From a virus (Duplodnaviria > Caudoviricetes): 64,000 nucleotides of DNA. Location: IMG/VR virus record IMGVR_UViG_3300003541_000003, positions 3,297 to 67,296 of that record, one strand, 5' to 3'. The notes under the pieces are model-generated. The model saw only the letters and a program-made list of their open reading frames with translations. It was not told the DNA's origin and searched no databases. Of this stretch, positions 22,495 through 26,682 are shown piece after piece (within the stretch, counting starts at the first letter, position 1; each line of letters begins with the position of its first letter). The position numbers and the translations under genes are program-made.

Positions 22495-22531
22495 GTTTCA
22501 CCTGGCGGAATAGGGTTTTACCTGATAAAAC
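22495..22531. repeat. Left 37-bp double-palindrome boundary site
   Basis: GTTTCACCTGGCGGAAT-AGG-GTTTTACCTGATAAAAC. About 26-27/37 identical to 26646-26682 in either orientation. Confidence 0.8.
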
Positions 22532-22725
22532 TTGCTCCTCCTCTTGCTCTGCTATACGCAATGTTAAATAATTATAGGCTCTCATGCTCTGAGAGCCTTT
22601 AAAAGTATATCTATCCGCAATAGGGGAGCTAAAACGGCAAGGGGAGCTAAAATCTAGGGTAAAGCGTATAGCTTAACATAACGCAAGTATACTCTATATG
22701 CTCTGATTAGGCAAGGGGAGCAATT

Positions 22726-22889
22726 TAGCCGTAAAATGATAGCTACTTCATATAATATATACTATACAGGCTCTAGGCTTTAGCAGGAGGAGAGCCGGAG
22801 CAAGGGGAGCATGCTCCTGCTAATGGCTCTAGCCTCCCTAGCCGTAAAATGATAGCTACTTCATATAATATAGTATATACAGGCTCTAG
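22726..22889. repeat. Two 51-bp direct repeats (48/51 identical, 113-bp period) plus four GGGGAGC motifs nearby
   Basis: TAGCCGTAAAATGATAGCTACTTCATATAATATA-nnn-TATACAGGCTCTAG at 22726 and 22839. Confidence 0.9.
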
Positions 22890-22957
22890 CTCCGGCTATA
22901 TAGGAGGATTATGGTATTATTAGGAATTAGACCGTTTTTGTCATATTCCATCCTGGT

Positions 22958-22992
22958 AAAAAAAGCTCCCTAGCTTATTAGGCTAGGGAGCT
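22958..22992 (-). terminator. Rho-independent terminator ending the island operon
   Basis: AGCTCCCTAGC/GCTAGGGAGCT 11-bp stem followed by T7 on the minus strand, just downstream of the peptidase stop. Confidence 0.85.
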
Positions 22993-23018
22993 ATCATTTA
23001 GCTAGAGCCTCCTAATCT

Positions 23019-23993
23019 CTAGCCGTTTATCATGCCTCTATTGCTAGGCTCTCCGCTAGCATGCCAAAAGCTAGCACAATTATCACATAGCCATGCCTCT
23101 AAATCATCATAATAAAGAGTATCGTTAGCAGGCTCTCCGCAATAATTGCATACCTCCATTTTAAGGTATCGCTCTTGCTCCGCTAGCTCCTCCTCTAGCT
23201 TGCTCCTCTTGCTCCGCTTGCTAGAGCTTGCTCCTATAAATCTATCGCTATCTAAAAGCTCCTCCTCTAGCCATGCTCCGCTATCTCTCCATGCTCCGCT
23301 ATCTCTCCATGAGGTAGAGCGTTTAGAGTAGCTTGCTCCTCCCTCATAGATAAATTTAGTATCCTTATAGCGGAGATAAAAGCGGTTTAAGAGCGTTAGA
23401 GCTTTTAGATAATTATTAACACTAACCCTGCATAATTTAGTGTGCTCTTGCTCATAGCCTATGCCCCAATTAACGCAAGTTACTCCTAGCTCTGTTAATT
23501 CTCTTATATCGCTATAAGAGCCTATAGCCGGAACTAAGCCTATAGATTTAAGAGCCTCTAAAATCTCTTTACTCTCATAATCGTATAATACAGGCTTTAA
23601 CTCCCTCCTATCGTATTCTAGGATTAAGTTGTAGTTATGGCTAGGCTTAAAATGAAAAGCGGAGCTATAGCCTTGCTCCTCATTATCTGTTAACAATATA
23701 TCGCTATCTATCCCTAGCAATGGTAGAGCCTCTAGGCATGTATAAACTCCTAGCCTGTCATCTAGGTTAGGGGAGAATATAAACTCCTCCCCTAGAGCCT
23801 TATATTTTATAAAATCCTTGCTCTTAGGGAATACAGTATCTAAATGAGCAATAGAAAGCCATTTAGAGCCTCTATCTATATAGATATAACGCTCCCCTTT
23901 AACCTCTATAACCTCTTTAGAATATTCTAAAAAGTAACTTTCTAGGGAACGGATACAATGCTTTTTTAAATCTCTTATAGATAGGTTAATCAT
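23019..23993 (-). CDS. M28/M42-like binuclear zinc peptidase with C-terminal Cys4 finger
   Basis: AHLDTV, LDDRLG, DNEE, YDRR, YEQEHT; then CNYCGE..LCDNC. 18-bp tandem duplication (WRDSGA x2) at 23271-23306. Confidence 0.75.
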   Translation of the reverse strand: MINLSIRDLKKHCIRSLESYFLEYSKEVIEVKGERYIYIDRGSKWLSIAHLDTVFPKSKDFIKYKALGEEFIFSPNLDDRLGVYTCLEALPLLGIDSDILLTDNEEQGYSSAFHFKPSHNYNLILEYDRRELKPVLYDYESKEILEALKSIGLVPAIGSYSDIRELTELGVTCVNWGIGYEQEHTKLCRVSVNNYLKALTLLNRFYLRYKDTKFIYEGGASYSKRSTSWRDSGAWRDSGAWLEEELLDSDRFIGASSSKRSKRSKLEEELAEQERYLKMEVCNYCGEPANDTLYYDDLEAWLCDNCASFWHASGEPSNRGMING

Positions 23994-25429
23994 TTTATAA
24001 ACTCACTAAAGCTAATAGCTCTAGCCTCCTCCCTCCTATTAGCTCTAGCCATTGCACTAAAGCAAGTAGAGCAATATATAACCTCCTCTTGCTCTACCTC
24101 TAGGCTTATAGAGCTATCTATCTCTACAATAGAGCCACAAGCGGAGCAAGTTACAAGCTCTAGGCTAGAGCATGCCTCACAAACCCAAAAGCCGTTTATA
24201 TCGCTAAAATTCTCCTCTAAATGATATTCTCCGCAATAGTTACAATATTCTGCTAAATCATCCCTACAATCGGAGCATAACGTTTGATTATCTACCTCCT
24301 CTAAATCTCCTCTATCGTTATCATAATATTCTCCGCAATTATCGCAAGCGGTAAAATTATCCTCTAGGCAAGAGGAGCATATAAAGCTATCTCTACTCTC
24401 TATATATTCTCCGCTATCGTTCTCATAATATTCTCCGCAATAGTTACAGTAGCTATACTCCCCTATACAATCGGAGCATATATCTCCATAACCTCTAACA
24501 TGGTATAAATCATCCGAGCTAAAGTATTCTCCACAATCTCTACAAGGCTCTACATCTTCATCCGCTAAAATCGCATAATCGCAATCTAGGCTTTTATTGC
24601 TAGGAATATTCTCCTGTTTAGCTATGAGGTATCCGCTAGAGCTATTTATATAGAGCATATAATCACTATCGCTATTGTTAAAGCCTACTCTAGCATAACT
24701 AAAGCCTAAGAATGTAGCTAAAGCTCTAGCCGTAACTATAGCCTCTAAACCGTAACTATTAAAGAGGAGCAAGCTATCTCTATAAGGCAAGAGCCATGCT
24801 CTAGCTATTCCACTATTAATGTTAGAGCTATCAGAATAAAACCTAATCGCTATGCCTCCATTAAGCCTTATGCTCTCTTTAGCGTTAGCTCTACCTCCCC
24901 AAAAGCAAGAGCCTCTATCTCCATAATCTCCACTATCCCAATTAATTTTATCGGTAAAATCGAAATTATAGAGCTTGCTCCCCTGCTCCCCTCTAACCTT
25001 GCCTATATAGCCTCCTAGCTCTGATAGCATGCTAGCGGATAGCTTAAGGCTAAAATTCTTATAGAGATAGCTATTAAATCTCTTTAGCCATGTACCACAA
25101 TATTCTCCCTTAGAGATAATCCAACTATCTCCGTTAATAGCCTCCATTGCCTCCATGAAACGGCTCTGATATCTCATTAACCTTAATACCTCATAAGGGA
25201 GATTATCCGTAATTAAGCCGTGTTTATTAGCAAGCTCTAGCAATTGCTCCCTAATGGAATAGAGCGTATTCTCACTAAAGTTAGAGGCAAGCTCTAGGCT
25301 ATAGAGCTTGTCAATGTCATAATCGTTATTAATCTCTATCTCCGGCTTAATCTCTCTGATAATTTCTAAAGCCGTTTTATTGCTCTCATTGCATGAGATT
25401 ATGCTTTCATCCTTAATAAATGTAGCCAT
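23990..25429 (-). CDS. 479-aa protein with five tandem Cys4 zinc fingers
   Basis: Ten CxxC motifs in the C-terminal half (CRDCGEY, CNYCGEY, CDNCGEY and others). Confidence 0.8.
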   Translation of the reverse strand: MATFIKDESIISCNESNKTALEIIREIKPEIEINNDYDIDKLYSLELASNFSENTLYSIREQLLELANKHGLITDNLPYEVLRLMRYQSRFMEAMEAINGDSWIISKGEYCGTWLKRFNSYLYKNFSLKLSASMLSELGGYIGKVRGEQGSKLYNFDFTDKINWDSGDYGDRGSCFWGGRANAKESIRLNGGIAIRFYSDSSNINSGIARAWLLPYRDSLLLFNSYGLEAIVTARALATFLGFSYARVGFNNSDSDYMLYINSSSGYLIAKQENIPSNKSLDCDYAILADEDVEPCRDCGEYFSSDDLYHVRGYGDICSDCIGEYSYCNYCGEYYENDSGEYIESRDSFICSSCLEDNFTACDNCGEYYDNDRGDLEEVDNQTLCSDCRDDLAEYCNYCGEYHLEENFSDINGFWVCEACSSLELVTCSACGSIVEIDSSISLEVEQEEVIYCSTCFSAMARANRREEARAISFSEFIK

Positions 25430-25432
25430 GCC

Positions 25433-25852
25433 TTAATTCTCCTTAATCGTTATGTTAATATCGTTAGCCGTTAGCTCTATCGTTAGAGGGAGATAGAGCT
25501 TAGTAAAATTAAACTTGCTAATAGAGCCATAACGCAATAGCTCCCCTAATAAATGCCCACTATAGCCGTTAGCTAAATAATGCTCTATCGCTTGTTTATA
25601 GTTAGCTATCCTAGCTAGAATAGCCGTTAGGATTTTATCGCTCATATATGAGTAGCTTGCCTCCTTGCTAAAGATAAGAGCCTCATATAAAGCCGTGTAT
25701 TTATCCTCATAAATAGCTAGATAACCTTTAAGCTCCTCTAGGTTATCTACCTCATAACGGCTAAGGTAAAATTTATTAATCGTGTTATGGAGGTTAACTA
25801 AATCTCCGTTAATCTCTTTAATATCTAAAATCGTTAGTCTATTCTTAGGCAT
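25433..25852 (-). CDS. Hypothetical early protein
   Basis: 139 aa with GAGGAG RBS. Confidence 0.7.
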   Translation of the reverse strand: MPKNRLTILDIKEINGDLVNLHNTINKFYLSRYEVDNLEELKGYLAIYEDKYTALYEALIFSKEASYSYMSDKILTAILARIANYKQAIEHYLANGYSGHLLGELLRYGSISKFNFTKLYLPLTIELTANDINITIKEN

Positions 25853-25870
25853 GATATTAGCTCCTCTATT

Positions 25871-26116
25871 TTATAGTTTATCGTTTTGATTAATCTGGGA
25901 GGAGAGCATTATAGTTACAAGCTCTCCGCTATCATCCGTTATGTTAAAGAATACTCCGAGCCGTTTTAGCGTTATGGCTAAAAGTTTAGCATGCCTAGAG
26001 CATACTAGAGCTACACGCTCATTAAGCAAGTTAGAGATATACACGCTCTCCATAGAGCTATAACCTCTATTCTCTTGCTCCCTTGCTATGATTTTATCCG
26101 TAATATTTATACTCAT
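25871..26116 (-). CDS. Hypothetical early protein
   Basis: 81 aa with AGGAG RBS; first gene of the island operon. Confidence 0.7.
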   Translation of the reverse strand: MSINITDKIIAREQENRGYSSMESVYISNLLNERVALVCSRHAKLLAITLKRLGVFFNITDDSGELVTIMLSSQINQNDKL

Positions 26117-26461
26117 TTTAAAATCTCCTATTCTTTAGAATTGTGTTTATCCGCTTGCTAGCTCTATCAGTTTTTATAGGGTTAGTATTCTCCTCCTGCT
26201 ATAAGCCTTACAAGGTTAGAGCCTGTAGACTATCTCCGCTTTACTTAGCTAGAGTTATGCTAAGAGCCTTGCTATTCCCTTATAGCAGGAGCATGCTAGA
26301 TTATCGCTCCCTATACCACTTGACTAGAGTTATGCTAGCTAGCTTATATCTATTCTGTTGTTAGGGTTATGGAGGAGCTTGCCTCTAGTTAGCTCCTCCT
26401 AATTAGTGATAGTGAGATTTTATCCCTCTTAAATGAAGTATCCCTCATTATTAAGAATTTC

Positions 26462-26487
26462 TTAACCTTACATAATTGTAAGGTTAA
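26462..26487. repeat. Perfect 11-bp inverted repeat at the island's right edge
   Basis: TTAACCTTACA-TAAT-TGTAAGGTTAA. Confidence 0.8.
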
Positions 26488-26645
26488 ACTATTGACATCC
26501 AGGGAATATCGTGAATTAATTTCTTCTTCCAATAATTACATTTATCATTAATCAAGTGTTATATGTAATATAAATAGTTATTACATTAATATGACATTTA
26601 TCACTTGACTATGACAAATGTAATAAATGGAAGAAATAATTGTTT

Positions 26646-26682
26646 GTTTCACCTGATGAAACCGTGTATCGCCTGGTGAAAC
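26646..26682. repeat. Right 37-bp double-palindrome boundary site
   Basis: GTTTCACCTGATGAAAC-CGT-GTATCGCCTGGTGAAAC. Same 17+3+17 architecture as 22495-22531. Confidence 0.8.

Follow-up and report, generated by a model that had tools for sequence, protein, structure and literature searches.

Two 37-bp elements at positions 22495-22531 and 26646-26682 frame an early gene island of extreme composition in the genome of an uncultured tailed phage (Caudoviricetes; IMG/VR record IMGVR_UViG_3300003541_000003), and judged from the sequence there is a somewhat better than even chance that they represent operator-type sites for one dimeric DNA-binding protein, which would coordinate or insulate the early island and the two operons that lead outward from it. 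The window analysed comprises 64,000 nucleotides, i.e. bases 3297-67296 of a viral contig of 67,296 bp (G000) that closes on itself with an overlap of 66 bp. The paired sites are unique in the genome, non-random, arranged as mirror images and conserved in relatives, and they are situated in non-coding regulatory DNA beside conserved promoters. Binding sites of one regulatory protein are their most likely function because each pair is conserved in a related phage; the operator reading is based on the tandem dyads spaced about two helical turns apart, on their uniqueness, on their conservation against diverged flanks, on the promoter-rich surroundings and on the mirror arrangement.

Each element consists of two 17-bp dyads separated by a 3-bp spacer (centre-to-centre distance 20 bp), exactly as the first-pass annotation of this DNA had read them. 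The left pair is composed of the island-distal palindrome L1 (22495-22511, GTTTCACCTGGCGGAAT) and the island-proximal palindrome L2 (22515-22531, GTTTTACCTGATAAAAC), the right pair of the proximal R1 (26646-26662, GTTTCACCTGATGAAAC) and the distal R2 (26666-26682, GTATCGCCTGGTGAAAC), the latter being asymmetric with CG at positions 5-6; none of the four is assigned to a strand. The half-site common to these dyads is about GTTTCACC (GTTTYRYC). Seven of eight arm positions pair in R1 and likewise in L2, six of eight in R2 and five of eight in L1, which is therefore regarded as one good plus one poor half-site; the minus strand of L1 reads ATTCCGCCAGGTGAAAC, and the CGCCWGGTGAAAC asymmetry is common to L1 and R2. 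Recomputation of the identity between the two 37-mers gave the same values as previously noted (26/37 as direct and 27/37 as inverted repeats).

With the consensus of that annotation and up to three mismatches, seven strand-hits were obtained versus 0.23 expected, a number equalled in none of 100 shuffles; a degenerate consensus with at most two mismatches recovered the four sites and one match in coding sequence at 19514 (0.42 expected), and tandem pairs were absent from 60 shuffles searched in the same way. No further copy of the motif was present in the full 67,296-bp genome, including the 3.3 kb beyond the window. The earlier observation that the motif occurs nowhere else thus holds genome-wide, with chance accounting for approximately 0.2-0.4 single matches and no pairs. 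Hix-like sites, the integron attC core and the DnaA box were each compared with the motif by eye and did not fit.

One of the pairs was found in each of two related phages. L061, a 68.5-kb contig from ENA that was compared over a locus of 20.6 kb, shares 65-85% DNA identity in many genes and has the same layout; its homologues of the island genes follow in the same order and orientation with 30-37% protein identity, as against 54-66% for the flanking proteins. Since L061 has these syntenic homologues, the island is an ancestral, fast-evolving block and not a recent insertion. The right pair of L061 reads GTTTCACCAGGCGAAAC, followed by a 4-bp spacer (acga) and GTTTTACCAGGCGAAAC (centre-to-centre distance 21 bp); GTTTTACCAGGCGAAAC on the other strand is the counterpart of R1, and R2 agrees with its L061 equivalent at 16 of 17 positions. 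Over the stretch 26609-26695, 77 of 89 alignment columns are identical (87%) compared with 47% in both flanks, and two 1-nt indels within this block indicate that it is a cis-element and not coding. L145, a contig of the Joint Genome Institute (JGI) that was reached via the homologue of the 324-aa island protein, covers the left border and ends before the right one. Its left pair is made up of ATTTCATCTGGTGCAAC (1435-1451, counterpart of L2), the spacer cat and GTTCCGCCAGGTAGAAC (1455-1471, counterpart of L1), with 28 of 37 positions identical to the window (76%) versus 24 of 95 upstream and 19 of 62 downstream (25-31%); it occupies the equivalent position, with the last island gene and its terminator on one side and a C-rich tract, four iterons and a promoter on the other. 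The search for the site pair among related phages, which the first-pass annotation had suggested, therefore returned the right pair in L061 and the left pair in L145, and its proposal of protein-binding sites gains support: each pair forms a block of conservation in diverged intergenic DNA, and tandem 17-mers at 20-21 bp from centre to centre have the anatomy of operators.

The relation between the two window sites becomes apparent when they are read outward from the island: at every site the proximal palindrome is symmetric and the distal one asymmetric, and the distal palindrome reads ..CGCCWGGT(G/A)(A/G)AAC at the right and left sites of the window, at the right site of L061 and at the left site of L145. 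Because the outward readings share this proximal/distal design, the true relation of left and right is a mirror symmetry about the island. All sixteen half-sites of the window and the relatives fit (G/A)TT(T/C/G)YRYC except for an A at position 3 in R2. Paired changes are found in both types of palindrome: positions 5/13 of the proximal one are T-A in L2 of the window and C-G in the L145 counterpart, and positions 4/14 of the distal palindrome of L145 are likewise changed to C-G.

Beyond these relatives the same phage was encountered, 100% identical, on contigs over 1-12 kb in at least seven metagenome samples or runs, and SRR5198903 and SRR10451667 are examples of runs in which it is present; two contigs, of 114 and 139 kb, are longer than the genome and possibly represent concatemeric assemblies. 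In the more distant relative G003 (L056-L059), the core proteins of which are 40-50% identical, another palindrome family, TAGAAC-N4-GTTCTA, occurs in 8+2 copies in the same arm, which fits site and regulator specificities changing together. Eight of these copies (27561-27808) stand in one 950-bp intergenic region and two more (25344-25397) 2.2 kb away; the pattern is that of a Gram-positive-type LexA box. None of the 15 exact matches to the motif in IMG/VR, among them a 68-kb provirus in which the motif occurs once, showed any sequence relatedness, and all were discarded. IMG/VR relatives identified via TerL (approximately 50% identity) were without the motif and had only structural and replication genes in common; no degenerate double-site pattern was found in JGI metagenome contigs, and no conserved-block pattern in IMG/VR.

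We infer from the conserved dyads that the elements bind protein, and that one protein serves both. According to the proposed arrangement, each site would accommodate two dimers next to one another, both facing the same side of the helix. The rightward operon leaves at the right border, with the gene of a Zn-knuckle protein first and the lysis, packaging and structural genes thereafter, and the leftward replication arm has its iterons and promoter beyond the left border; occupancy of the sites would set the timing of both outward operons relative to the immediate-early island, or insulate them from it. A DNA loop, as in the case of lambda OL/OR, might span the 4.15 kb and connect the two sites. 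As binder, the small early proteins of the island and the proteins with Zn ribbons or the Zn knuckle are conceivable, as is a host factor. If the operator reading is true, the four palindromes offer a handle on the early-to-middle/late switch of a phage lineage in which nearly every early protein is an orphan; whether they regulate, insulate or delimit decides between an ordinary early operon and a staged-entry anti-restriction device, and the extreme, lineage-specific oligonucleotide avoidance of the framed block is unusual in itself.

Several results weigh against operator function. The strong outward promoters are located approximately 100 bp (right) and 190 bp (left) from the sites and do not overlap them, and at the left pair no sigma-70 promoter was found on the strand of the arm. 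The left pair is missing from the 20.6-kb locus of L061, and because this phage keeps the right pair only, bracketing of the island is not universal. As regards the binder, a six-frame search of the whole genome gave no match to the helix-turn-helix (HTH) family HTH_3; genome-wide, no enhancer-binding protein (PF00158) was matched; and the only sigma-70 region 4 match, a weak one, fell in a distant 470-aa protein. Pfam, PHROGs and PADLOC applied to about 70 proteins returned no regulator and left the neighbouring proteins without assignment. The 81-aa protein, encoded by the first gene of the island, was modelled poorly by AlphaFold when submitted alone and reached a predicted local distance difference test value (pLDDT) of 83 with a 7-sequence alignment; Foldseek found nothing for this model at E <= 0.001, VIA-align gave weak Alba-like rows at Z ~5, i.e. 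under the noise guide of the tool, and one member of the protein family has a weak Cdc6 winged-helix match. In the ESM Atlas, the 479-aa and 101-aa proteins group only with unnamed viral clusters.

The right pair belongs to a conserved control block (26609-26695, unstranded) that contains a promoter-like element, both right palindromes and about 13 bp beyond. The promoter-like element ATGACA-18-AATAAT (26611-26640, plus strand) is conserved and of modest quality; its predicted start at approximately 26647 coincides with the start of R1, and thus of the right pair, 5 nt separate the end of the element from R1, and sequence and spacing are the same in L061 (5398-5369). Its -35 hexamer overlaps a leftward TTGTCA (26617-26612). 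About 100 bp past R2 follows a conserved predicted sigma-70 promoter, TGGACA-17-TATACT with an upstream TG (26780-26808, plus strand), that would serve the first rightward gene; the place aligned with it in L061 reads TTGACA-16-TATAAT (12/12). This first gene (26914-27132, plus strand) codes for a small basic Zn-knuckle protein (72 aa) with homologues in L061, L063 and L064; the open reading frame is readable from 26827, and the homologues favour the shorter form starting at 26914. The protein received no Pfam or Atlas assignment; its motifs (window 26914-27176) are HSSDLRFCGC, ARRRFR and IPER.SV.YTD. The gene lies directly upstream of a near-consensus promoter at 27148 with a long structured leader, followed by the lysis genes, and the homologues in L063 and L064 are likewise found upstream of GH25 lysis genes.

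The left pair is located between the terminators of the island and a C-rich tract, iterons and a strong promoter. A strong predicted intrinsic terminator (22964-22992, minus strand; seven consecutive T after an 11-bp stem) closes the island operon, and a second, terminator-like hairpin (22576-22598, unstranded) precedes the left pair by 45 bp. On the other side, a sigma-54-like element, TGGCAC-N5-TTGCA (22469-22484, plus strand), represents the only perfect match to the -24/-12 consensus in the window, and its predicted +1 at 22495 is the first base of L1; three near-copies in opposite orientation are found in L061 and none in L145, and the genome gave no match to the sigma-54 activator domain (PF00158). 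The element may be a promoter or a member of another repeat family. Five iterons of the type AGTTGCGAC (22345-22432, unstranded) adjoin a G/C-rich tract at 22433-22468. The array is kept in L145 with four copies (1480-1610) and in L061 with at least five (9120-9250), the units being AGTTGCGAC/GTCGCAACT; L147 displays the same layout with other iterons (TGCAATCG). Array and tract are likely to constitute a replication origin or an initiator-binding region. The strong predicted promoter of the leftward replication arm, TTGACA-17-TAGAAT (22276-22304, minus strand), is conserved in L061 and L145; its -10 hexamer ends 6 nt ahead of the ATG at 22269, and the identical spacing in all three phages (window; L061, ~9700-9740; L145, ~1650-1690) suggests that the first gene of this arm is expressed from a leaderless mRNA.

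The right site is positioned inside a divergent intergenic region of 700 bp, at the strand-switch point that coincides with the minimum of the cumulative GC skew. From there the leftward arm extends from 26116 down to 2135, with the island first and then the remaining genes, among them those for a C5 methyltransferase, primase, DnaB-like helicase, ThyX, PolA, a RecA-like protein and RuvC; the rightward arm, beginning at approximately 26827, contains the genes for a GH25 endolysin, HNH, TerS and TerL and the structural genes. HNH, TerS and TerL are encoded at 31809-34111, and TerL is at most 28% identical to that of any cultured phage. At 30840-31070, upstream of the genes for a 116-aa HTH protein, HNH, TerS and TerL, tandem 34-nt repeats (each TAATTTACA..TGTAAA-like) occur together with nested palindromes; by sequence this region is a candidate for the cos/pac recognition region. 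By comparison with HK97-like phages, the HNH gene beside the terminase and these repeats point to a putative cos-type end some 4 kb away from the right site.

The island operon itself (23019-26116, minus strand) comprises four genes, in order of transcription those for the 81-aa protein (25871-26116), a 139-aa protein (25433-25852), a 479-aa protein with Zn-ribbon repeats (23990-25429) and a peptidase-like 324-aa protein with a Zn ribbon (23019-23993). Across the island (~22,530-26,490) ten trinucleotides, i.e. GAC/GTC, CAG/CTG, CAC/GTG, CCA/TGG and GAA/TTC, are about 4-fold depleted and CTAG-type words are enriched, and the amino-acid usage is distorted with lowered Val, Thr, Pro, Gln and His. 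The scarcity of these trinucleotides sets in at ~22523-22549, bearing out the remark that the left site abuts the start of the odd composition; the right edge of the bias (~26490) falls short of the right site by about 155 bp, a stretch occupied by an AT-rich promoter region. The vocabulary is lineage-specific: the window (22532-26490) and its closest relative L148 (1-1343) deplete CA/TG and AC/GT and enrich CTAG/AGC, and the homologous islands of L061 (5724-8666) and L145 (1-1099) have AG/CT and GC depleted 2- to 5-fold instead.

In lambdoid phages, the OL and OR operator clusters flank the cI-rex immunity region. The present sites resemble them in their tandem 17-bp two-fold symmetric units with short spacers, in the two clusters being placed in mirror order, at a distance of a few kb, on either side of a leftward block with a promoter adjoining the right cluster, and in the operons that lead outward on both sides; in addition, the gene of a small Zn-binding protein directly before the strong promoter at 27148 and the lysis genes recalls the position of Q relative to PR'. 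In contrast to lambda, no gene of lysogeny, such as one for an HTH repressor or an integrase, was found here, the strong outward promoters are approximately 100-190 bp away whereas those of lambda overlap the operators, each cluster has two sites instead of three, the clusters bracket an early cassette that evolves fast and is extreme in composition, and one relative (L061) has the right cluster only. The virulent phage phi29 employs the small regulator p4, which binds repeated inverted-repeat sites in the divergent early/late region and switches transcription. Repeated inverted-repeat sites in a divergent control region are common to both systems; however, those of phi29 are contained in one region of about 220 bp, whereas here a second matching cluster is located 4.15 kb away beside the putative origin.

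It is unlikely that the sites are part of the replication origin or serve to organise it, with the phage initiator, an accessory protein or a host factor bound to them. The left pair is about 60 bp away from the five-AGTTGCGAC array and its G/C-rich tract, an architecture found again in L145 and L061 and, with different iterons, in L147; the leftward arm codes for the DnaB-like helicase, primase and PolA, and the right pair coincides with the strand switch and the skew minimum. The latter pair, however, has no iterons nearby and sits in promoter-like sequence, L061 retains the iterons without the left pair, and the palindrome motif differs from that of the iterons: the origin reading would suit the neighbourhood of the left site, not that of the right one. 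A further reading is that the sites act in a folded state, either as 5' hairpins of the outward transcripts or as extruded single-strand hairpins, to which we assign a distinctly low probability. The right 37-mer is predicted to fold with -11.1 kcal/mol (z = -3.4), but as one long hairpin instead of two, and the plus strand of the left site, at -4.2 kcal/mol (z = +0.5), is no better than shuffles. Both sites begin at predicted plus-strand starts (of ATGACA-18-AATAAT on the right and of the sigma-54-like element on the left), yet L145 does not conserve the latter element and L061 has it in inverted orientation. Most of the imperfect positions are transitions, with G6/T12 in four of four distal palindromes forming a wobble pair on the outward strand; this wobble-compatible strand is nevertheless inconsistent at R1 of L061, and no Rfam match was obtained across 21.5-28 kb.

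That the elements are targets of site-specific recombination, leading to inversion or excision of the island or to cassette exchange, is very improbable, and the inversion or excision considered in the first-pass annotation finds no support. A compositionally distinct block of 4.15 kb flanked by imperfect inverted repeats (27/37) would match this expectation, as would the faster evolution of the island proteins (30-37% identity versus 54-66% in the flanks), and the hix/gix sites of Hin, Gin and Cin likewise flank a few-kb block as imperfect inverted repeats, which are about 26-37 bp long and have dyad symmetry of their own. Six-frame searches of the whole genome with PF00239 and PF00589, positive in control genomes, gave no match, however, extending the earlier statement that the window holds no recombinase to the entire genome for the serine and tyrosine families; RuvC and the RecA-like protein were the only recombination proteins seen. 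A single orientation was observed wherever the junction was covered (G000, L042, L043, L047, L049 and the gene order of the 114-kb contig), this being evidence from assemblies, in which minority forms are invisible, of four independent DNA contigs and one gene-order-only contig besides G000. The homologous island genes of L061 have the same order and orientation, in agreement with an ancestral block, L061 has one of the two sites only, and no target-site duplication was detected. Unlike the Hin/Gin/Cin systems, moreover, there is no invertase gene and no enhancer was identified, and the sites are built of two tandem dyads each, where those systems have one 12-2-12 site. We consider it also quite unlikely that the sites mark or control stepwise entry of the DNA or the genome ends, with a pre-early island entering first and the sites acting as stop or boundary signals or as edges of a long terminal repeat cut by terminase/HNH. 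The island bias, with its ten depleted trinucleotides and distorted amino-acid usage, is extreme and differs by lineage, as would result if early-exposed DNA had evaded sequence-specific nucleases of the host. The circular assembly has, however, an overlap of only 66 bp, the HNH-associated terminase cluster is provided with its own repeats and palindromes as candidate packaging site at 30840-31070, and the composition between that region and the island is ordinary. One contig, L043, terminates on the first base of L2 (22515), but the assembly of this phage to which it belongs is fragmented and of low coverage, the contig extends at its other end to 237 bp beyond the right site, and the break has a G-rich tract next to it; other fragments of this sample are plainly low-coverage fragments as well, and the end at 22515 was dismissed as a terminus or graph break. 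Contigs from Logan break within the 51-nt direct repeats described below, away from the sites. With a candidate packaging site of the terminase's own and the L043 end stemming from a low-coverage assembly, the suggested ends of a 4.15-kb terminal repeat are not supported. The geometry of the T5-like first-step-transfer region is close, in which IRC-spacer-IRD and IRD'-spacer-IRC' repeats with paired DnaA boxes, i.e. two inverted composite copies 1.8-4.3 kb apart in the early region with boxes paired at 3 bp, have been described and the early region is regarded as protected against restriction (Davison, bioRxiv 10.1101/866236). The T5 elements differ in being 131 bp long, inside a terminal repeat of about 10 kb and built from asymmetric 9-mer DnaA boxes, whereas the present ones are symmetric 17-mers off the DnaA consensus, with no evident long terminal repeat and in a terminase context that looks cos-like; their half-sites agree with the DnaA box TTWTNCACA at no more than six of eight specified positions (best fit TGTTTCACC) and are two-fold symmetric, unlike DnaA boxes. 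There is accordingly only a slight chance that the mirror sites are boundary or stop signals of a first-exposed pre-early segment that has been purged of lineage-specific nuclease targets, as an independently evolved form of T5-like staged entry or exposure in a lineage with an HNH-terminase packaging module.

Further features were observed within and near the island. Its non-coding tail contains two 51-nt direct repeats (22726-22776 and 22839-22889; 94% identical), flanked by a promoter-like site at 22944-22916 and the hairpin at 22598-22576, which may be part of a small RNA. In the island leader, a perfect palindrome with 11-bp arms (TTAACCTTACA-taat-TGTAAGGTTAA; 26463-26488), largely kept in L061, could be a second operator or an RNA hairpin. 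As to the host of this uncultured lineage, possibly a member of the Acidobacteriota, a further contig is of interest: L060 (1-20618; ENA contig_93731) carries 8.8 kb that are 99% identical to the early leftward arm of L061, joined to Acidobacteriota-like chromosomal genes, including those for PNPase, DnaG and RpoD (88% identity to an Acidobacteria metagenome-assembled genome), with the left junction inside the iteron array; it is possibly a chimeric long-read contig or an integrated remnant and, as such, a possible clue to the host.

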